Assembly (NCBI GenBank): GCA_010093745.1
Contig: MU006016.1
Coordinates: 1-64,000, forward strand
Source: Piedraia hortae CBS 480.64
Taxonomy: Eukaryota
Reading direction: 5' to 3'
Length of the DNA: 64,000 nucleotides
Part shown: piece after piece, positions 619 to 42,404 of the stretch
How positions within the stretch are numbered: the stretch's first letter is position 1
Layout of the letters: each line of letters begins with the position of its first letter
The notes under the pieces: model-generated
Seen by the model: the letters and a program-made list of their open reading frames with translations, nothing else
What the model was told of the DNA's origin: nothing
The model's database searches: none
Translations under genes and position numbers: made by a program

Positions 619-1751
619 TCACAGAATCGCCTTGAGCTGTTCCTTTTGTTTAGCCGTCAGCGATGTGGGGAATTTGATGTTTACGCCCACGATAAAGTCG
701 CCCCGCTGATCAGTCTTCTTTATGGGCATTCCCAGCTGCGGGAATCTCTCGTGCCAGGTAGGCGGTGTCGGCCCCGAGTGGCTGACGGTCAGTTGCTTGC
801 CGTCTATTGTCTTAACAGTTTGACTCCAGCCTGTTAAGGCCTCCTTCAGGGTTATTGTGACGTTGGCTCGTAGATCGTTGTTTTCTCTGGTGAAGACGGG
901 ATCGTCCTTGTACTTGATAATGAACTGGAGGTCTTGGGTGCCGCCCTCGACCTGGTCGCCCATGTCCGGGTATCTGATCTTGCTGCCGGCCTTTATGCCT
1001 CTATTGATGGGCACGTTGAGAATCTTTTCTTCTACATTCTGCTTCTGTGTTCGCGGATCAAATGTTTTGCGCTGCACCTTGATCTTCTTGGTTGTGCCCT
1101 TGAAGATGTCCTGCAGCGACACGGGAAGGTCACGGTCTACGACTGTGGTCTCAATGTCTTCGTCTCGCCTTTTTGGAAAGGGCCGTGACCCTTTCATGCC
1201 GCGTCCACCGCCTAGGCCGCCACCCAAAAAGTTGAAGGCATCATCCGAGTCGTCACCAAGACCGCCACCCATGCCGCCCCCGCCACTCCGTAAAAATTCG
1301 GCAAAGATGTCATGGGCATTGGAGAAACCGTAGCCGCCGCCGCCGCCACCGCTGGAGCTGAAATGGAACGTCGGACCTCCCCCTCCCCTTCCTCCACCAA
1401 ACCCGCCAAAGCCTCCTGGCATGCCTCCAGCGCCGGCAAATGGGTTGCCACCCATGTCCTCTGCAGATGGCGGCGGACCAGCCTTGCCAGTGATGAAGTC
1501 GAAGCCATAAGTATCATATTTTTTCCTTTTTTCCGGATCTGAGAGAATCTCATACGCTTCGGAAACTTCCTTGAACTTTTCGGCGCCGGCCGGGTTCTTG
1601 TCGGGGTGATTCTTCAGCGCTTGCTTGCGGTACGCTTTTTTTATCTCGTCTGTGCTGGCGGAGGACGACACGCCAAGGCCTTGAAAGAATTAGTGACACC
1701 AAAGCAGTATCGGGCTTCCCTACGGTCGTATAATTTTGTGTCTGCTGGCAT
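619..1751 (-). CDS. SIS1: Type II Hsp40/DnaJ co-chaperone (Sis1-like)
   Basis: Exon 1 MPADTKLYD(R) from ATG 1751, 44-nt intron 1723-1680, then J-domain with HPD motif, G/F-rich linker and DnaJ C-terminal domain. No Zn-finger repeats. Confidence 0.92.
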
Positions 1752-1824
1752 GGTGAACGATGGCTCGCAAATGCGCGCGCTTCTAGAGGAGGGGTCAGGG
1801 CCTAAGCGCAGAATGACGCACCGT

Positions 1825-1844
1825 AGAAGGTTCGCGAAGGTTCC
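1825..1844. promoter_or_regulatory. Heat-shock element (four alternating nGAAn units) upstream of SIS1
   Basis: aGAAggTTCgcGAAggTTCc, ~75 bp upstream of the SIS1 ATG. STRE-like AGGGG at ~1790. Confidence 0.8.
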
Positions 1845-1958
1845 ATGCACTCATGTCACGTCACATGGCAGGCTGTGCCATACAGTGTCACCCCACAACT
1901 TGCCATGCCCCATCGAAATGCTTCAAAAACTAATGACAAATGTAATGTACATCTAACA

Positions 1959-4900
1959 TCAAGTCCTCTTGGCACTCTTCAATACGTGGGCCTTCTTGGC
2001 CTCTTGCAGTAAAAGTTCCAAATCCCCGCTCGTTTCGCACATGGCGCGAAACGTGCCCTCTTTCTTGCTTATCAAGTCGAACGGATCACCAAACTCGGCA
2101 ATCTCACCCTGGTCCAACACGAGCACCTTGTCGTAGTCAATAATGGTTTGTAATCGATGGGCAATTGTAACAGTTGTGTTTCGAATCTCTCGAATAGTCT
2201 CTTGGATCTTAAAGTCAGTTGCATAATCGATTGACGCCGTTGCCTCGTCCATGAGCAGCACTTTGGGGCTTTTAAGCAACGCTCGCGCAAGACATAGAAG
2301 CTGTCGTTGTCCCTGCGATAAGTTTGATCCAGACTCTGCAACTGGCGAACTGAGGTTCAGGAAGATATTCTTGTTATCTGATGTGATATCTTTAGCTGCA
2401 TTTGAAGCTGGAGCCGTTCCAGAGGCAGTCCTGTCAACTGGAGTCGTTGGTCGTGAGGGGTTTGCCGAAATAGTCAAAGATGGCGAACCAATTAGATGCA
2501 CTTTCTTGAGCGCGGCGAATATTTCCTCGTCTGAAAATAGTCCAAAGGGGTCGAGATTGCTTCTTATCGTGCCGGTGAAAAGAGTAGGATCCTGAGGCAC
2601 CATGACGATATTGCTTCGCAGGTCATTGAGCCCTATAAGGCCAATATCGATGTCATCAACCACAATCTTGCCTTCAACAGCCTCCAAGGCACGAAACATT
2701 GCCAAGGCAAGCGAGCTCTTGCCTGCACCGGTCCGACCAACCACTCCCACCTTCTCCCCGGCCTGAAACTTGACCGATATGTTCTTCAGTACAAATTCTA
2801 GGTTATCCCGGTACTTTGTAGAGTAGCCAACAAACTCCACTTCACCTCTGCTTGGCCACTCGGCTGGGGGTCTGTAATCTTCGATAAATGGCGGAGCCTC
2901 TTGCTCAACGTCAAGATACTCTTTGATTCTCTCTACAGAGTTCATGTTCTGCTCGTTTGTCGCATACAGGCGCACAAACCACAGCACGTTTTCGGTGAAA
3001 GTGACGGCATATGTCATGGCTAGGCCGGCGGCTCCAGCATCCACCGCCCCAGTCCTGGCAATTATAAACACTCCGGTAAAGAAAGAGACCAAGGCACCAA
3101 CAATGTCGACACGAAAAGCTAGCCAGCGATTTGTGCCCCATAAATAGATGAATGGTCGTGAATGCGTGTTGATCTGTTCCAGGTTCTTCCGTATGAAGCG
3201 CTGCTCATCACCGTAAGCACGAATGGTTGTCATTCCAGTCAATGTCTCGCCAAATTGTTGGTAAAGCGGACTTCTTTGCACCGACTCCAATCGCTTTAGA
3301 TCTCTCGATGAATTGATGTAGAGCCGTCCGATGACAAAATACAAGATGGTAATGAACACGGCTGCAATCAAGAAGCCTGGAGTGATGATGGAAATAAGGA
3401 CAATGATGGTGATAATTGAAGCAAGGCAGTGCACGACGCCGGTAGCGACCGGAGCCACCTCTTGATCGAGCGCCTCAATGTCCTTGGAAAACCGGTTCAT
3501 GATCTGCCCGAGAGGTGTAGAATCGAAGAAACGGAATTTTGCGTGCGTAATCCGCTCCATGAGTCTACGGTGGATCCGCGTAGAGGCCGACAGCGAGCCG
3601 TAAAAAAGGATTCCCTCGTGCAAGAAGGTGATGATCATAGATGCCGCTCCAATTGCGGCGTAGACACCAAGGTAGTAGCCAACGTTGACCTGGTGGCTGT
3701 ACATTGTAGCGCGAATAAGGCCATTCTTGGGCATATTCAACATGCAGGACCGACCGCGCAAGCATGCAAGTGAGCTGCTATCCATGACGTTCATGCTTGC
3801 CGTGGAATCGAGACTGGTATATGCATTGGCCCATTCTCTGATCCAGACATTGGTTGCAACCTGCAGTACCTGCTGAGCAGCAAAGCAACTTGCTGCCGTA
3901 GCCCAAAAGACTGGTCCGCCCATGCGTTTGAGATACATCCAGATGATGTGCAGGCCTACCGCGCCTTCGGCCTTCTTCTCATCATTCGCAAACACGTCTG
4001 CTGCCACGTTCAATCCTACCATATCCATGGACATGACGCTTGTCAGAGGATCGCCAATGGTAGCGCCAATGGCATTGCTGCTTGGAACATGCGAGTGGGA
4101 TGCTTCTTCCACGCAATCAAGTGCGTTAACGCCAATCATTGAGGGCACGCGGGAGGGAATGGTTGAAGGGGCTTTGGAGCTTGGGTCGCCGATATCAAAC
4201 TTGCTGCTGTCTTCTGCAAGCACCCCAGAGTCAATCACTTCGGTCGGTATGCCCTGGGCCGTCACCCGACCATTGTCAAGCACAACAGCATACTCAGAGT
4301 ATGGCAGACACAGAGTAACGTTGTGGGTGACGAGAATGCAGGTCCGGTTGCGCATCAATGGGCCCCGAAGCGCGTGGTCGAATATCCACTTCGCCGTGTG
4401 GGAATCAACTGCACTCAGGACATCATCGAGGAGCATATGTCTAGCATTGGAGTATAGCGCGCGAGCCAGGCTGATGCGCTGCTTCTGTCCTCCAGAAAGT
4501 GTGACTCCTCTCTCGCCAACCTGCGTGGAATCTCCAGCCTCGAGAACCTCAAGATCACGCTGAAGCGAGCATGCCACAATGACCTGCTTGTACCGCCTAG
4601 TGTCCCAGTCGCTTTCGAAGACAATATTGTCCTTGATGGTGCCGTTTACCAGCCAGGGTTGCTGAGCACAGTATGCCACACTCTCAGTAAACCCGGTGTT
4701 GGGGTCGGCCTTGAGGCTCCTTCGATCTTTCCCGCACGGTAGATGCACGGATCCAGAGAGGAGTGACATCTCTCCAAGGAGGGCCATTAGTAACGAAGTC
4801 TTACCGCTCCCAGTAGGTCCGACTACAACATTCATTCCGTTATTCTTGAAGCGCAAGTCCAGATTCATCATTCTGAAGCTCTCGGCATCTTGGCTGTTCC

Positions 4901-15530: not shown

Positions 15531-17164
15531 TCAGTACGGGGCTCGTCGATATGGATCTCTGTCTCGACGGTCGCGTCTGATGTCGTTGTCTGCAGACTTC
15601 CTGTCTGGGCTGCGGCTGCGCGTACGTCTGTGGGTGCTTCCTCGATGAGGTGCATCCGGATCTCTGTAGGTTCGATAGTCATCTCTGTAGCCATCGCGCC
15701 GGGAATATGCTTGGTTGCGGTCTGGAGGAGGCCGAGGACGGTCATGTGGAATGGCATATGATGGGATATAGGTATCGCCATTGGAAATACCTCGCGAGGG
15801 TGGAGGTCCCCGTTGAGTATTCTCTGGTCGTGATTGAACGTCCATTGGCCGAGGGGGCAGAAGGTGATGTGGCCTCGAGTCTCGGACATCAGGCCTCCGA
15901 GCAGGCATCCGGCCGTTATCCGGGAACTGGTGTCTGTTGCGGCCATCGTATCCACGGGGCAGGCCTCTATCCCGGGGGTTAGGATAGCCGTTGATGTAAC
16001 CGTTCCATTCGTTTCCCGCGGCGCCGCCTACGTGAGCTTGAAGTGGAGCCAGTGGCTTCTCTTGTCCACGACGACGGGAGTCGAGTTCATGCGTATCTCG
16101 GTATTTTGGCAGCCTGTGCGGTGGCAATGGCAGAGGTTCGGTGCTAAAATACGGGTGGCGCATGGCATCGACGGCGTTGATGCGTTTTCGCCAATCAAGA
16201 AGCAGCAGCTGCCGCAGCAAATCCAACCCTTGAGGGCCCAGATGTGGGCCGAATCGTCTGTCAATGTCACCCTGTTTGGGTTCCCAGTCCTTCCTGCCCT
16301 CGCACCCCGGCAGACTGGACCAGCCCGGCATGTTTGTTTCCGTAGGAGAGCCCACTAGCTGAAAGATGCGGAAACACTGATCGACGTCAGTCTTACCTTC
16401 CAGGATCGGCTTCCTCTCAAACATTTCGCCAAGAACACAGCCAATGCCCCACATGTCAATGGCTGGAGTGTAGTGCTTAAGATTGAGGAGGAGCTCCGGC
16501 GGACGGTACCACCGTGTGACTACCAGGCTGGTGTATGGACGGGTGGCGGTACCGTTTCCCTGGCCCGGCTGCGGAGTTGGGCCGTGGTAGTGACGGGCAA
16601 GGCCAAAGTCGGCTATTTGAAGTTTGCCGCTGTTCGATATGAGCAGATTTGCGGCCTTCATATCGCGGTGAAGAATGTTGGACTGTAACGGTCAGCAGAT
16701 GCAGCAGCAATTCGGCAGCTACCCACTTCGTGAAGATATGCAATCCCGTCAAGCAGCTGCATCATGTAGCATTTAATCTGGCCCTCCGACATCTTCACTT
16801 CTGGGTTTGACAGTAGACCGCTGAGGTCGTGCTCCACATAAGGCATGGCCATGGACAGGGTTGTTCGCCGTCTCCCATACTTGCAGCGCTCTTCCGCCGT
16901 TTGCGGCTCGACGGCCATCTCATCCAGGCGCAAAATGTTCGGATGATTTAGCATCTTCAGCAGCTTAATCTCTCGCAGGGCAGTGATCGGGAATCCGTCC
17001 TTTTCGTTGTGCATGAGAATCTTTTTCAGCGCGACGAGGGCGCCGGTACGCCTGGAACGCGCCTTGCTGACGACTCCAAACGTTCCCTCGCCCAGCTTCT
17101 CCGTTATCTCATAGTCGGTGATGTAGGTGCAGCCACGAAAGCGGCGGTCTGCGAGATCGGCCAT
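15531..17164 (-). CDS. BUR1: CDK9-type cyclin-dependent kinase Bur1/Sgv1
   Basis: GEGTFG, PITALRE helix, HRDMKAAN after 44-nt intron 16726-16683, [19 protein letters not shown]-rich tail. Confidence 0.9.
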
Positions 17165-17370
17165 GTTACAAGCGTCTGCAGCGGGCGAGGTGGAGGCACT
17201 GATGGTGCGTAGCTAAGCCCGGTTCGGGTTAGGCTGACGCGAACTGCCGACAGCGGCACGGCCCGCAGCGCTCGGCTGAGCCCTGAAGATTTTCGGTCTA
17301 CGTCATTTCTCTTTAGGCTGCAATCGGAGGGGTCGCACACAACCCAAGCCGTCAAATCTTTTCCCTGCAC

Positions 17371-17398
17371 CGCACACACACACACACACACGCACACA
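17371..17398. repeat. (CA)n microsatellite immediately 5' of the ARB1 start codon
   Basis: cgcacacacacacacacacacgcacaca directly before aaaATG (17402). Confidence 0.9.
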
Positions 17399-17401
17399 AA
17401 A

Positions 17402-19404
17402 ATGGTGTCGGCGTCCAAAGCAGCCCGCCAGGCCAAGCGTGCGGCAGATGGCAAGGACACAAAGAAGACGCCGTCTTCGAAGTTGGCGTCCAAGAACGCA
17501 TCCGGAGCGTCGTCTGTGAATGGCGACGGCGAGGCTGGCGGAGACCAGACTCTGGCAGAGGTCAACCAAAAGGTCAAAAGCATAGCACTGCAGAAAGATA
17601 AGTCGGGCATCTCGGATCGCGTCACGACTGGCGTGTTGGCGAGTCTGGAGGCTAGCCGAGACGTCAAGATCACATCAGCCAGCCTGGTATTCCACGGCAA
17701 GGTGCTCTTCAACGACACCACCATTGAGGTCAATTACGGCAGACGATACGGTCTTTTGGGCGAGAACGGCTGCGGCAAGAGTACGCTGCTCAAGGCCATT
17801 GCAAGCCGTGAATTCCCCTTTCCCGAACACATCGACATCTATCTGCTTAACGAAGGCGCCGAGCCCTCGGACACGGGAGCCCTTGACTGGGTGGTCCAGC
17901 AGGCAGAGAACGAGATGAAGAGGCTGGAGGCGCTGAGTGAGGAGATTCTGGAGAATGAGGGTCCCGACAGTCCCAAGTTGGAAGACATTTATGAACGCAT
18001 CGACGGCATGGTAAGTAATTAGACCTTGATCTTGCCGCTTGCTTACGCAGACAGGACCCTTCCACCTTCCACACGCGCGCGGGCCTGATCCTCACGGGTC
18101 TCGGCTTCAACAAGAAGACAATGGACAAGAAGACCAAAGATATGTCCGGAGGCTGGCGTATGCGTGTAGCGCTGGCCAAGGCCTTGTTCGTCAAGCCCTC
18201 TCTTCTGCTCCTGGACGATCCGACGGCCCACTTAGACCTTGAGGCTTGCGTCTGGCTGGAGGAATATCTCAAGAAGTGGGAACGGACGCTGATTCTGGGT
18301 AAGACGCTTCCTCTCTTCGTACATCCTCCAGTGCTGACGATATGCAGTTTCACACTCTATGGATTTCCTTAACGGAGTGTGCACCAACATGATTGACATG
18401 CGCATGAAGCAGCTGCTCTACTATGGCGGCAACTACGATTCGTACGTGAAGACCAGAACAGAAAACGAGGTCAATCAACAAAAGGCGTATGAAAAGCAGC
18501 AGGAAGAGATCAAACACATCAAGGAGTTCATTGCCAAGGCCGGTACCTACGCCAACTTGGTCAGGCAAGCGAAGTCGCGGCAAAAGATCCTTGACAAGAT
18601 GGAGGCCGAAGGCTTCATACAGCCTGTGCAGCGTGAGCGGGTGTTCACGTTCCGCTTTGCCGATGTAGAGAAGCTGCCGCCGCCAGTTCTTTCACTGGAC
18701 GACGTGACATTTTCGTATTCGGGCAAGAAGGAGGACAATCTGTACGAAAACCTCGATTTCGGCGTGGACATGGACAGCCGAACCGCGCTGGTGGGACCCA
18801 ACGGTGTGGGCAAGTCGACTTTGCTGCGCATCTTCACCGGTCAGCTGTCGCCCACATCGGGCTCTGTGAGCAGACACACGCATCTGAAACTCGGCATGTA
18901 TTCGCAGCACTCCGCCGAGCAGCTCGATTTGACAAAATCGGCACTGGACTTTGTGCGCGACAAGTACCCGTCGATATCTCAAGACTATCAGTACTGGCGG
19001 CAGCAGCTGGGCCGTTATGGCCTTTCCGGGGAAGCTCAAACAGCCGTCATGGGCACGCTGTCCGAGGGACAAAAGTCTCGCATTGTCTTCGCCCTTTTAG
19101 CAATCGAGAGCCCCAATATGCTGCTGCTTGATGAGCCGACGAACGGTCTCGATATCCCCACCATTGATTCGCTGGCAGAGGCAATCAACGCCTTTAGCGG
19201 TGGCGTTGTTGTGGTGTCCCACGACTTTAGGTATGTGTCTTCACCTCACTACTATATCCGTGCTGACAGCATTCTAGGCTACTAGACAAGATCGCCAAGG
19301 ACATCATGGTCTGCGAGAACAAGACCGTCACTCGCTGGGACGGTTCCATTGGCGAGTACAAGAACCATTTGAGGAAGAAGATGCTGGCTGCCGGTGGCGT
19401 TTGA
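17402..19404 (+). CDS. ARB1: ABCF-family ATPase Arb1/ABCF2
   Basis: Two NBDs and no TMD ([32 protein letters not shown]). Introns at 18011-18054, ~18299-18348 and ~19232-19278. Ends ...KMLAAGGV*. Confidence 0.92.
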
Positions 19405-38705: not shown

Positions 38706-39490
38706 CCCTGGGTAGCTCATCTAGGCCTTGACCGTGCCCTGATTGGTCTAGACAAGGCAACCACCGCTGACTCCATGGAGCCGCCGAAGGTTGGCAAGCC
38801 CAAGGTCATTGCCGACCAGCTCGAAGGCTGCTCCGCAGCATCCTTGATGGTTGTCGCCCTGGGCCGCAATGCTGTCTTAGATTCCAGGCGCATCGGGCGG
38901 TTATCATCTGGCGCGATGAGCACCGAGGGGCAGAGGACAAGCTGTTCCGTCCCAACAAGAGCTCGGACACCCTCACAAAGTATTTCAGCCCCCTTACGGG
39001 GTTCATCACGTTCCTGGCCTCCCTCGAAGAGGAGTATGGTTTTTCGGCGCCAGGAACTTTTGACGGCGTACACGTGCCGCATACGGCGCACGCCGCCTGG
39101 CAGAGCCTCCCGACAGAGGCCGCAGCTGTACGCCCGGATAATAGCAACCTTCAGCAGAGCCCCCTTTCCCTTTTGTGGGCTCTCCTCCGTCAACCCGTGG
39201 GTGCGACGTCCTTCCGCTCGCCCCTTGCGACGTACACCTCCCTTTTCGCAGTCGGGAGAGGACGGGCGGCGTGGCAGGAGGGCCGAAATTATACAAGCTC
39301 GTTATCCGGATTCATCTGGGTCGTCCAGCTTATCATGGTGGCCAAAATTCTCGGGGAGGAGAATGACCTGGCGAATCGGCAGGGCATATACATGGAGGAA
39401 AACTTGCCAACGATACCTCTCCCAGGGTCTGCCAATCCCATGCCCACTATTATGCAGTGATGCTCGTGCATTCGCGGGACGATGCGCTAG
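38706..39490 (+). pseudogene. Fragment resembling the N-terminal region of fungal telomere-linked RecQ helicase (TLH-like) proteins
   Basis: WVAHLGLDR, then after a frameshift CRPGPQCCL...FRPNKSSDTLTKYF...FRSPLATYTSLFAV...WQEGRNYTSSLSGFIWVVQL...GSANPMPTIMQ*. Recalled similarity to the SPL...W..xxNY.S.LSG.IW..QL block. No helicase domain is present. Confidence 0.55.
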
Positions 39491-39570
39491 GATATAAGGT
39501 ATTCAGCTTTCTTATGCCATTCCTCTTGCAGCCAAAGTCACATCATACAAATCCCCTTGAATAAGTAATA

Positions 39571-39782
39571 CAGTACTCCGAAAAATTGGTAATATGTTTA
39601 GGATTTTTGACACATCAAAGCCATGACTTCCGTTACATTGCACCGATACGTTCAAGAGTAGCATCATTCGATAGGCCTTTCAAAGCGCTACCCAACGCAT
39701 GTTGTTTAGCGTTGGTATGTGGTACACAGGTGGAAATAATTGATGTCAAAGTCGGACGATTTAGGTGACCAATCTATCGGCG
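39571..39782 (+). repeat. Left terminal inverted repeat of the Tc1-like element
   Basis: Reverse-complement match to 41382-41593 with 9 mismatches. 39604-39759 is identical. Confidence 0.93.
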
Positions 39783-39920
39783 ACACTTCCAAGTCCCACC
39801 TCTGACCAAATCAACGCGTCGCAAACCACACACAACACCTCTACAAACGCGAAAAGATTACACAACGTTCATTAGAGTCGTGAGTTTCATTGAAATTCGA
39901 TTTGCGCTTTCCTGTTCACT

Positions 39921-41372
39921 ATGCGCCCTCTCGGAGACTCTAGACGCGACAACGTGCTTGCGGGCATCAAAGCGGGCAAGTCTCAGCGACAAATGACCAA
40001 AGACATGGGTTGTAGTAAGACGTTCGTTCAGAAACTCCGCTAGGACTTTGTTGGAAAGGGAGGCGAGATCGAAACGCCAAGGGTCGGGCGTTCAGAGAAG
40101 CTGGACAAGGCCACGAAGAGGCGATCGGCCAGGTTGATGCGCACGAACAAGTGCAAATTGGCGCCAGAGGTTGACCGTATGCTGAAGCGTGGCCTAGGGA
40201 TCAGCATATGTCCTGATACTGTCCGCAATGCTTTCAAAGAGCAAGAGTTAGGGGATGTCAAGAAGAAGGCCTCAGCACTATCGAAGAAAGCAGCCATTCG
40301 AGACTCAATATGGAACATGTCAGCACCATGGATATGACATCGTACAATGACTACATGAGGAAATGTCCCATCCATGATGATTGTCTCGGTAACAAGTGCA
40401 AGCTACATTCTGGAGTCATACTTCCATCACAATCACTTGCAATTGATACGCCTGCAATCAGGAATGATATTGCTCGTGCTGCATCATTTGCGTTTCAGGG
40501 ATCGTCAGAGCTTCATAAGGACAAATAGAAAAAGATACTGCTTGATGTGATGAAAGCAAAAACGGGTCGAATGGGGTCGGGTATTCTCAATTGTAACGTT
40601 GACAGGAGCCTTCGGATGGTCATGAGTCCACACACATAAGATCACAGGATAGTTTACATCCCGGAGTATCTCTGTGGCAAGTGGAAGGTGGTCGAATTCA
40701 ACGAGGAGACCCAGAGGTGGGGCTGATCGCCTTCGGTGGGCCACTGAGCACCTGGAATGGACAGTTGAGGACTGGAAGAAGGTCCTGTTCTCCTACGAAA
40801 CTAAAACCAACTGTGCTGGATCCAACGGCGTGCAATGGTCGTGGACCCCCCCCCCCCCCCCTCCCAACGAGACTGGGTTCGAGGATCATAACGTGAGGGA
40901 CACAGTCAAGCTCGGCGGTGGAAAGGTCTTAATTTGGGGGTGCATGTCCGGAGCAGGAATGGGGAGGTTCGATTTTGTCGTTGGGCGAATGGATGCGCCG
41001 CACTACGTCAGTATACTGCGTATAACCTTTGGGGTAGCATGCGCTTCCTCCGCTGTGACAAGTTCCAGCAGAATGGAGATAGCAAGCATACCTTGAAGCT
41101 TGCCCGGGCCTGGTTTGAGGACAACGAGATCGTTTTTCTGGACTGGCCTGCCTACTCCTCGGACCTCAATCCCATTGAGCATCTGAGGGAGATTATCAAG
41201 AGGAGGCTGGCTGGATATAAGACCGTTGCCGAGAGCCAGGGGGAAGCTGAAGAAGCGGATTGAGGAGGCATGGGCCTCCATTACGCCCGAGAAGTATTAT
41301 GCACTCGTTGAGAGTATGCCGAGGCGTTGTGCAGGTGTTGTCAAAGCCAAGGGAGGTCCGACTAAGTATTAA
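39921..41372 (+). pseudogene. Tc1-family transposase pseudogene interrupted by a 426-bp insert
   Basis: HTH region MRPLGDSRRDNVLAGIKAGKSQRQM with stop at 40041, LSKKAA|insert|ADRLRWA...WKKVLFSYETK (catalytic D to Y), VKLGGGKVLIWGC, FQQNGDSKH (D lost), WPAYSSDLNPIEHL, SMPRRC.GVVKAKGGPTKY*. Two frameshifts. Confidence 0.93.
40296..40721 (+). other. Foreign 426-bp insert encoding a decayed fragment similar to a two-barrel RNA polymerase beta'/Rpb1-type subunit
   Basis: One frame spans the insert with two internal stops (40526, 40637): ...KCPIHDDCLGNKCKLHSG...LLDVMKAKTGRMGSGILNCNVDRSLRMVMSPHT*DHRIVYIPEYL... Confidence 0.6.
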
Positions 41373-41381
41373 GAGTAGCCC

Positions 41382-41593
41382 CGCCGGTAAATTGGTCATC
41401 TAATTCGTCCGACTTTGACATCAATTATTTCCACCTGTGTACCACATACCAACGCTAAACAACATGCGTTGGGTAGCGCTTTGAAAGGCCTATCGAATGA
41501 TGCTACTCTTGAACGTATCGGTGCAATGTAACGGAAGTCATGGCTTTGATGTGTCAAAAACCCTAAACATGTTACCAATTTCTCGGGGTACTA
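41382..41593 (-). repeat. Right terminal inverted repeat of the Tc1-like element
   Basis: Reverse complement of 39571-39782. Terminal base changed (TAGT instead of CAGT). Confidence 0.93.
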
Positions 41594-42404
41594 TAAGTAC
41601 CGGCCCTATTGCCACAGTGGAGGTTATCAATAACGATTTACTACGCACCCTGGTCGAGTTATCTGTTCTAACGAGCGACAGCTCGCCTTCAACTGATTGC
41701 TGAATCCAATGGAATTCAACTTTCGTGGTTACATATTGGGGAAGCAGTACCACACAGATTATGGCAGTATATTTGACAAAGTTGATGATGCGAGTGATAA
41801 CCGAAACTCGTCGATCAAGTCCGGAAGAAGAAATTTTGAATAGGATAAAATTCCGTCCCAGAGATTATACCCGAGATGGTATTGAAGACGTCTCCACATC
41901 CAGAGACCATGTAAAGCATAAAGGCACGCTTGACCTCTCGAGTTATCATCATGATAAGTGACATACCATGACGATAACTCGATGTACCGTACATCCCGAT
42001 TCGAATCAAGACACTCGGTGATGGCATGCAAACGCCGTGTCAGAACCTCCAATTTATGAGCTGGTAGATGATGTTTGATTTGGTGAGCAAATTGGCTTGT
42101 CCATCGGGCCAGAACACTCCCTGCTTGAGTCATTTGCGCTTTGCCTTACGGCACCGGCAGCAAACTTACTGCAGCTACGCAACATCAAGGCTGCTGCAGA
42201 GGTCTCGCCCGAAGTAGGAGCCGCTGCCACGGCGTGAGTGACTACCAAGGGGAAAATTGGCTGCAGAGGAAGTTGCGGGCAGGTGCCCAGTCAGCATTCA
42301 TTGACAGTTGACATCTTGCGAGTTGGGAATAATTAGGTTGTCAAGCACCCTACTTCACTGCTCAGCAAGTTTAATGATATTCATATGGGATACTCCGAAA
42401 CGGC

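Follow-up and report, generated by a model that had tools for sequence, protein, structure and literature searches.

A dead fragment of a miniature RNA polymerase subunit gene, probably captured by a Tc1-like transposon copy

Early-diverging fungi and budding yeasts are known to have large DNA viruses and cytoplasmic DNA replicons. Two papers of 2026 differ for the rest of Dikarya, and they describe filamentous ascomycetes as without known large DNA viruses and free virus-like elements (PMC13533422, PMC13348850). The yeast cytoplasmic virus-like elements of the pGKL2 type are fungal DNA replicons that possess their own non-canonical two-barrel RNA polymerase and a capping enzyme. Their polymerase consists of a beta-beta' fusion and a 132-aa (amino acid) subunit and is without most of the clamp (PMC6211774). 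The known endogenous giant-virus sequences of fungi belong to other phyla and carry a full-size, split Rpb1 (PMC7017919). Here we describe a 428-nt (nucleotide) insert at 40293..40720 on the + strand of a 64,000-nt stretch of contig MU006016.1, the whole of which is called the window below. The insert interrupts a decayed Tc1-like transposon copy. Very probably it is what remains of a gene that encoded the beta'-like large subunit in a miniature polymerase with two subunits and two barrels, and that came from an uncharacterised family of DNA elements and was ligated into the transposon.

The relatives of this gene differ from the yeast elements in two respects. Beta and beta' are separate in them, with an N-terminal domain and a switch 2 in the beta'-like protein. 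In addition, their family B DNA polymerase (PolB) is of the PF00136 type in 6/6 open reading frames (ORFs; E 1e-23 to 7e-42), with one sub-threshold match to PF03175 (E 0.001). The DNA polymerase of the yeast elements is of the protein-primed type (DNA_pol_B_2). An earlier reading of the window from its letters alone (the sequence-only reading) had named a cytoplasmic linear plasmid-like element among the possible donors. A donor of the yeast type fails, given the fused clamp-less polymerase and the different type of PolB in those elements.

The insert and its host transposon

Contigs from two public runs of the same organism, X1 and X2, which belong to two studies, were placed on 39300-41900. 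One 700-nt contig, found in both runs and placed at 40172-40865 with 1 mismatch, crosses both junctions of the insert. Both junctions are therefore real. The empty site is seen in one contig of X2, where a diverged transposon copy fuses 40292 to 40721 with only 'AA' between them, and a loose end at 40292 in X1 agrees with this copy. The insert is thus 40293-40720, with 428 nt in place of 2 and a net gain of 426. The sequence-only reading had bounded it at 40296-40721, within 3 nt of these limits, and had predicted that its removal would rejoin the transposase with the normal LSKKxxxxRLxWA spacing; the empty-site copy reads LSKKA-K-ADRLRWA, with frame and spacing intact. The same reading had recorded no GT-AG ends, no terminal inverted repeats and no obvious target-site duplication, and indeed the insert ends are GC..GG, not GT..AG, and no direct or inverted repeats of at least 14 nt were found at them.

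The depth of the insert in the DNA run was 15.1, close to the 12-12.7 of the single-copy flanks, whereas most bins of the transposon body reached 33-142. We therefore consider the insert unique to this transposon copy and never amplified, which settles a point that had been left for checking. The insert frame, counted from 40295, comprises 142-143 codons with exactly two stops, in line with the ~140-codon frame seen before. Frame translation places the first stop, a TAG, at 40526..40528 (+ strand) and the second, a TAA, at 40637..40639 (+ strand); most homologues have Tyr at the latter position. This frame equals codons 27-168 in a protein of ~590 aa. It is not in register with the transposase and has no start codon, and it represents an internal, 5'-proximal piece of the gene that stops ~50 codons short of the catalytic motif.

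The host transposon copy is decayed. It occupies 39569..41595 (+ strand, 2,027 bp), with TA at 39569-39570 and 41594-41595. Its left (39569..39782) and right (41382..41595) terminal inverted repeats are 214-nt inverted arms that are 96% complementary. The transposase remnant 5' of the insert (39921..40292, + strand) shows a weak HTH_29 match alone and one internal stop, and its frame differs from that of the insert ORF. The remnant 3' of the insert (40721..41372, + strand) has frameshifts and a poly-C run, with the DDE_3 region inside; one transposase piece matched DDE_3 with 30.4 bits against the Pfam cut-off of 28.6 (E 4e-7). DDE_3, the terminal inverted repeats, the TA ends and the many diverged copies in the same organism all mark this element as a member of the Tc1/mariner group.

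Polymerase identity of the donor gene

The family is rare: an exhaustive HMMER scan of 1.84 billion cluster representatives returned only 28 proteins at E ≤ 0.001, including 12 at E ≤ 1e-10. No cellular polymerase was among the 28. The longest of these matches have ~570-660 aa, and the shorter ones resemble fragments. Six proteins of 582-637 aa (from 67 candidates, longer proteins) match 99% of the insert with 39-75% identity and E values from 1e-23 to 3e-66. In the best of them (75% identity, E 2.9e-66) the insert corresponds to residues 27-168. When the six homologues were compared with the window by tblastn, they matched only 40295-40720 (E 2e-67 to 5e-29, with two alignments starting from 40280), and all their other matches in the window had E ≥ 0.19. 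The cluster members of five close homologues come from JGI/IMG, ENA and Logan only, and none is informatively named. The insert has no similarity of Pol I/II/III grade, and each of the tests named in the sequence-only reading came out in favour of a polymerase origin.

All six close homologues match RNA_pol_Rpb1_2 above the Pfam threshold (25.4-39.2 bits against 25.3), over the second half of the Pfam model and just 3' of the captured part. RNA_pol_Rpb1_2 is also passed by 6/7 of the beta'-like ORFs in the loci of relatives described below. The motif GDYDGDE is found in all six homologues, so the full-length proteins of ~590 aa do possess the downstream DxDGD that had been proposed as a check. 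In an alignment of 20 members, D218, D220, G221, D222 and E223 are invariant in 20/20; these residues lie outside the captured part, which ends at 168. Further invariant residues are K115, G117, R120, G130, R133, R183 and P185, and the family profile aligns R183 and P185 to the R-x-P of Rpo1N. An Arg/Pro pair (Rpb1 R446 and P448) and three Asp form the beta'-side of the eight residues universal in two-barrel polymerases, and switch 2 marks the DNA-dependent two-barrel enzymes, according to Ruprich-Robert and Thuriaux (PMC2919709).

The family profile matched 120 distinct PDB sequences at E ≤ 0.01. The best scores were obtained with archaeal Rpo1N (5e-21), eukaryotic Rpb1 (~1e-18), bacterial beta' (2e-14) and vaccinia rpo147 (3e-10). 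The switch-2 segment, in archaeal Rpo1N as in eukaryotic Rpb1, aligns with positions 107-135 of the profile. The corresponding part of the insert is a decayed switch-2-like motif at 40544..40624 (+ strand).

The AlphaFold model of the best homologue has a mean predicted local distance difference test (pLDDT) score of 74. Foldseek found at least 500 matches to it in the PDB at E ≤ 0.001 (best ~2e-9), and the 50 listed are all RNA polymerase complexes, matched at their largest subunits. VIA-align superposed 404 residues with Z 16.5 at 4.8 Å root-mean-square deviation (rmsd), with model residues 128-557 spanning Rpb1 359-1472. The whole largest subunit would therefore be compressed about 2.5-fold. 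Among predicted viral structures the best matches were the Rpb1 homologues from nucleocytoplasmic large DNA viruses (NCLDVs) and poxviruses, at ≤18% identity, while LEF-9 and phage beta' were lower.

A Cys/His cluster, C-x2-H-x2-C-x4-C, is encoded at 40364..40399 (+ strand) within the N-terminal domain and could be a zinc site. It is invariant in 7/7 aligned sequences; among the 20 aligned members, C50 and C56 do not vary, and H53 and C61 are each retained by 90% or more. The cluster lies beyond the reach of all sequence alignments, and the structural alignments that include the N-terminus have an rmsd of ~12 Å. To call it the clamp zinc site of Rpb1 is a guess.

Several features that had been read from the letters alone hold up here: the switch-2 motif at 40544-40624, with the right coordinates and the same stretch aligned to switch 2 by the family profile (best E 5e-21), the existence and conservation of the Cys/His cluster, and the streamlining of the donor subunit, to which the span of the model over Rpb1 corresponds. 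The profile and fold searches that had been suggested gave RNA_pol_Rpb1_2 in 6/6 homologues and the fold of RNA polymerase largest subunits. Judged by profile and by model, the family is a predicted beta'/Rpb1 subunit, streamlined, of a two-barrel RNA polymerase of the multisubunit type. A naturally minimised polymerase of this predicted kind would bear on the question of the smallest working two-barrel enzyme.

Gene content of related elements

Contigs of JGI metagenomes contained 42 loci with matches to the family. In eleven loci (L077-L087) the match goes beyond the core, and in nine of the eleven it extends across most of the length. The loci annotated were L077, L078, L079, L080, L081 and L085 from the metagenomes together with L119 from a genome collection. 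In the six metagenome loci both strands are densely filled with ORFs, introns are not apparent, and the GC content is 31%-49%.

The beta'-like subunit in the metagenome loci has 610-655 aa (Rpb1_2). An ORF of 799-838 aa with Rpb2_6 and Rpb2_7 matches, in L080, L081, L085 and L119, encodes a beta-like subunit, which its sequence makes a candidate partner of the beta'-like protein. All six metagenome loci encode a PolB of ~720-795 aa (PF00136, E down to 7e-42), and the element of L119 does so through a second contig, L130. A D5-kind superfamily 3 (SF3) helicase of ~445-530 aa is present in L077, L079-L081, L085 and L134; its DUF5906 match is just under threshold, and it matches DNA-primase families of PHROG with E values to 3e-13. 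RNase H occurs in ORFs with a full length of 169-357 aa and is at times fused to NADAR. In L077 and L119 there is a PIF1 helicase as well. A protein family of ~720-746 aa with an N-terminal TFIIS-type zinc ribbon, encoded in L078-L081, L085 and L119, belongs to the capping-enzyme family discussed next. No single locus carries the whole gene set in the stretch examined. The beta-like subunit, PolB and capping enzyme had all been predicted as neighbours of an intact donor, and all are seen beside the relatives.

The TFIIS-ribbon protein showed weak Pfam hints of LEF-4 in 2/5 members, of mRNA_cap_C in 1/5 and of methyltransferases in 2/5. Its model has a mean pLDDT of 51, and only residues ~405-721 were compared with 48,161 representative chains. 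The top seven fold matches are cap N7-methyltransferases or the capping enzymes vaccinia D1 and African swine fever virus (ASFV) NP868R, with Z 14.3-16.1; generic methyltransferases reach at most 12.0. A further match, to the Chlorella virus capping enzyme's OB domain, covers residues 404-480 (Z 10.3, rmsd 1.7 Å). On the strength of the model, we read this ~720-aa neighbour as a putative capping enzyme, which would imply transcription outside the host nuclear machinery.

The gene set resembles that of the Nucleocytoviricota in its PolB, its D5-like SF3 helicase and its two large polymerase subunits of the archaeo-eukaryotic type. A capping enzyme with guanylyltransferase (GTase)-OB and N7-methyltransferase parts like vaccinia D1 and ASFV NP868R, and the TFIIS-type zinc ribbon, add to the likeness. 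However, the beta' of the elements has ~590-655 aa, against 1,060-1,430 aa in most full-length NCLDV entries, with identity at or below 18%. Neither an NCLDV capsid nor an A32 ATPase turned up in the partial stretches, and no member was found in IMG/VR. The polymerases of the yeast elements are related to a different virus group, the Polisuviricotina, as stated in PMC13348850.

LEF-9 of baculoviruses and nudiviruses is likewise beta'-like and similar in size (433 and 495 aa in the entries compared), which makes it a weak look-alike in fold and features. Matches to LEF-4 and LEF-5 in the capping-enzyme-like neighbour occur in 2/5 and 1/5 members, all below threshold. Unlike LEF-9, whose Pfam family was not matched, the family described here passes RNA_pol_Rpb1_2 and is much nearer to canonical polymerases (E 5e-21). 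The similarity of LEF-9 and LEF-8 to Rpb1 and Rpb2 is described as confined to ~40 residues (PMC2919709). The split and miniature polymerases of jumbo phages also have reduced beta' homologues, and chains of the AR9/phiKZ type occur among the profile matches (E ~1e-12), but the elements have a putative capping enzyme and TFIIS-type ribbon, and none of 50 neighbour ORFs matched a phage structural family. Mriyaviruses, NCLDV-like dwarf viruses, were rejected as a home of the donor, since PMC11253617 describes them as without DNA and RNA polymerase. In a preprint on a Polinton-like virus framework (10.64898/2026.06.19.733378) the terms 'RNA polymerase', 'RNAP' and 'capping' are absent.

A few further features of the elements were recorded. 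RNase H-NADAR fusions occur in either order (L077:8491-9438 and L079:5593-6609), and L080 has a separate macro-domain ORF. In L081 the PolB (16892-19051) scores best in the PDB against a Thermococcales-type PolB (4e-25, against 1e-15 for Pol alpha), and the beta-like subunit (625-3138) against Rpo2 (2e-13), so that PolB and both polymerase subunits score best with archaeal enzymes. A family of ~280-450 aa is present in 1-2 copies per element (L080:16615-17703, L077:9501-11600, L081:8604-9767 and 15574-16557, L078:7103-8443). It has a distant likeness to the nucleotidyltransferase/Gad2 fold, and its nearest look-alikes in the ESM-Atlas (0.97; TM 0.74) are hypothetical proteins of Basidiomycota and Ascomycota, which serve as a lead towards fungi only. 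The assignment of a conserved ~540-aa neighbour, A4, as uracil-DNA-glycosylase was motif-based and was dropped, with no support in Pfam or PDB.

Distribution, host and capture

No family member was found in IMG/VR: of 327 confirmed stretches, the best 80 are only core matches of 20-38% identity to ordinary giant-virus polymerases. A tblastn search of 50,697 GenBank phage records gave two core matches only (27-29% identity), and plasmids gave three weak ones. With 0/50 neighbour ORFs in structural families of PHROG, a phage origin was rejected. Among prokaryotes, represented by one genome each of 185,579 species, a single full-length relative was found, L119. This is a 10.1-kb contig of 50.6% GC in an assembly filed as Streptomyces, whose sampled bulk contigs have 67-74% GC. 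The same assembly includes many contigs of 29-58% GC with copia/gypsy retrotransposons, DUF4216/DUF4218 and organelle genes. Given the GC mismatch and these plant-like eukaryotic contigs, the occurrence of L119 is contamination by eukaryotic material, and it is neither evidence of a bacterial host nor an identification of the host. These sequence searches argue that the donor family is not prokaryotic. Two more contigs of an element are present in the assembly at 49-50% GC, namely L130 (2.0 kb, PolB) and L134 (12.7 kb), the latter with the D5-like helicase, RNase H and nine ORFs without assignment. L119, L130 and L134 together hold the beta-like subunit, capping enzyme, PIF1 helicase, beta'-like subunit, PolB, D5-like helicase and RNase H.

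Genes are densely packed in the window, a stretch of eukaryotic chromosome with two ABC transporters, Vps18, SAC3/GANP, Sec15 and an AP mu subunit, together with an amidase and a cation efflux protein, and its housekeeping genes lie in long uninterrupted frames. Its Vps18 matches PDB chain 8dit_C over the full length with 1103 bits, and yeast PEP3 with 280 bits. 8dit is a Chaetomium thermophilum protein. The host of the window thus appears to be a filamentous ascomycete.

We propose the following course of events. The donor would have been an extrachromosomal element, a virus or virus-like replicon, with genes of its own for replication and for transcription of the cytoplasmic type (beta-like and beta'-like subunits, capping enzyme, PolB, D5-like helicase and RNase H). 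A piece of its DNA would have come to lie inside the nucleus of a filamentous ascomycete and been ligated by end joining into a double-strand break within one Tc1-like copy, with neutral decay since. Flank loss is almost nil and the junctions show neither duplication nor repeats, which fits end joining of a free DNA fragment; within the explanation given above, this route is somewhat favoured. Chromosome breaks are known to take up DNA of organelles, plasmids or viruses. The insert resembles NUMT- and NUPAV-type 'filler DNA' in being short, dead, foreign coding DNA with no target duplication, no terminal repeats and scant flank loss. It differs in that no known organelle, plasmid or virus was its donor and in that the break lay inside a transposon copy. 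The capture itself is thus ordinary, and the donor belongs to an uncharacterised lineage of polymerase-bearing DNA elements. The sequence-only reading had suggested a non-cellular, compact RNA polymerase as the source, an idea to which the ~590-aa homologues, the Rpb1 fold and the neighbour genes lend support. No published description of the ~590-aa family was found in the full-text literature, most subscription journals and supplementary files being outside that scope.

Several points weigh against this explanation. Alone, the insert matched no Pfam family and no PDB sequence at E ≤ 10, because the fragment is short and divergent, and its assignment rests on the full-length homologues. The beta'-like ORF of L080 matched no Pfam family at E ≤ 0.01. 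The genomic context comes from members that are 24-45% identical to the best homologue, P0003, and not from the closest homologues themselves (P0003-P0007, 52-75%). No double jelly-roll or other capsid protein and no A32-type or other packaging ATPase was matched by Pfam in the 127 ORFs scanned, on partial contigs, no terminal structure was found on the contigs of relatives, and most other neighbour ORFs match neither Pfam nor PHROG. Several contigs end inside genes and the longest on record for a member is 36 kb, so genome size is known only as at least 36 kb. The identity of the host is by inference, and the runs X1 and X2 are possibly not independent of the assembly.

Another point against the proposed explanation is that the search for other pieces of the donor covered the 64-kb window only. 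The template could then have been an endogenous viral region, larger than the fragment and integrated elsewhere in the same genome, from which the fragment was copied by ectopic repair or template switching. Such regions derived from large DNA viruses are documented in other fungal phyla (PMC7017919, PMC10640383). However, a tblastn search (E ≤ 0.01) with 84 ORFs of related elements found only a beta'-like match in the window, and only at the insert, and the agreement in depth with the single-copy flanks means that the assembled reads hold no near-identical second copy. We regard an integrated template as unlikely.

The donor might also have resided elsewhere, for instance in a plant, in a protist or in a prokaryote that lives alongside the fungus, and its DNA might have reached the fungal nucleus by horizontal transfer. 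The co-occurrence of L119, L130 and L134 with plant-like contaminant contigs would agree with this, as would the PDB scores of PolB and both polymerase subunits, which are best for archaeal enzymes. On the other hand, the putative capping enzyme and TFIIS-type ribbon point to a eukaryotic cytoplasm, a ~360-aa paralogous family is nearest to proteins of Basidiomycota and Ascomycota (again a lead only), and capture at a nuclear break requires DNA inside the fungal cell. A foreign residence of the donor is, in our opinion, improbable.

The fragment is purely coding and the genes of its relatives are intronless, hence DNA and cDNA cannot be told apart, and it could have been captured at the break as reverse-transcribed mRNA. 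It has no poly(A) tract or 3'-end bias, it is 5'-proximal in the gene, and nothing about it is specific for the cDNA route, which we hold to be quite improbable. An ordinary host gene fragment or an assembly chimera is largely refuted, as the 28 direct matches include no cellular polymerase, the listed full-length members have ~570-660 aa, and one contig crosses both junctions in two runs from two studies.

Returning to a captured piece of an extrachromosomal element, we consider one further reading evenly balanced between true and false, namely that the donor family is an undescribed lineage of cytoplasmic double-stranded DNA viruses, or of capsid-less virus-like replicons, of Dikarya fungi. 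Such a lineage would combine a minimal polymerase of two subunits, ~590 aa (beta') and ~800 aa (beta), a capping enzyme that resembles D1/NP868R and carries a TFIIS-type ribbon at its N-terminus, and a compact, archaeal-like PolB. If this is true, the 428-nt fossil would be the first physical evidence tying such a lineage to a filamentous ascomycete host. In itself, the fragment shows that a polymerase-bearing element once had DNA in the nucleus of an apparent filamentous ascomycete, and intact relatives exist in metagenomes today. It thereby points to a candidate host for a family of elements that has no annotation, and the ~590-aa subunit offers a search handle for living members in fungal cultures.

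The fragment is non-functional now, because it has two stops, no start codon and no catalytic motif and is out of frame with the transposase. Two of the family-invariant residues are changed in its switch-2 motif (R120G and G130R). Repeat-induced point mutation (RIP) was rejected as the cause of decay. The insert has a TpA/ApT ratio of 0.41 and a (CpA+TpG)/(ApC+GpT) ratio of 1.54, the Tc1 arms have 0.73-0.78 and 1.12-1.18, and none of these values is RIP-like. As for the transposon around it, a run of ~14 C at 40848-40862 breaks the transposase frame 3' of the insert. Other transposon copies differ near this run, with loose ends at 40843 and 40846 and, in one X1 contig, a 997-nt skip from 39847 to 40845. 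In X2, a contig ends at 39536, where a poly(A) loose end follows. This suggests that X2 is RNA, although none of the listed runs is recorded as such, and 39536 would then mark the 3' end of the transcript of the upstream gene. As the insert-bearing 700-nt contig is also found in X2, the decayed transposon copy with its insert may be transcribed.

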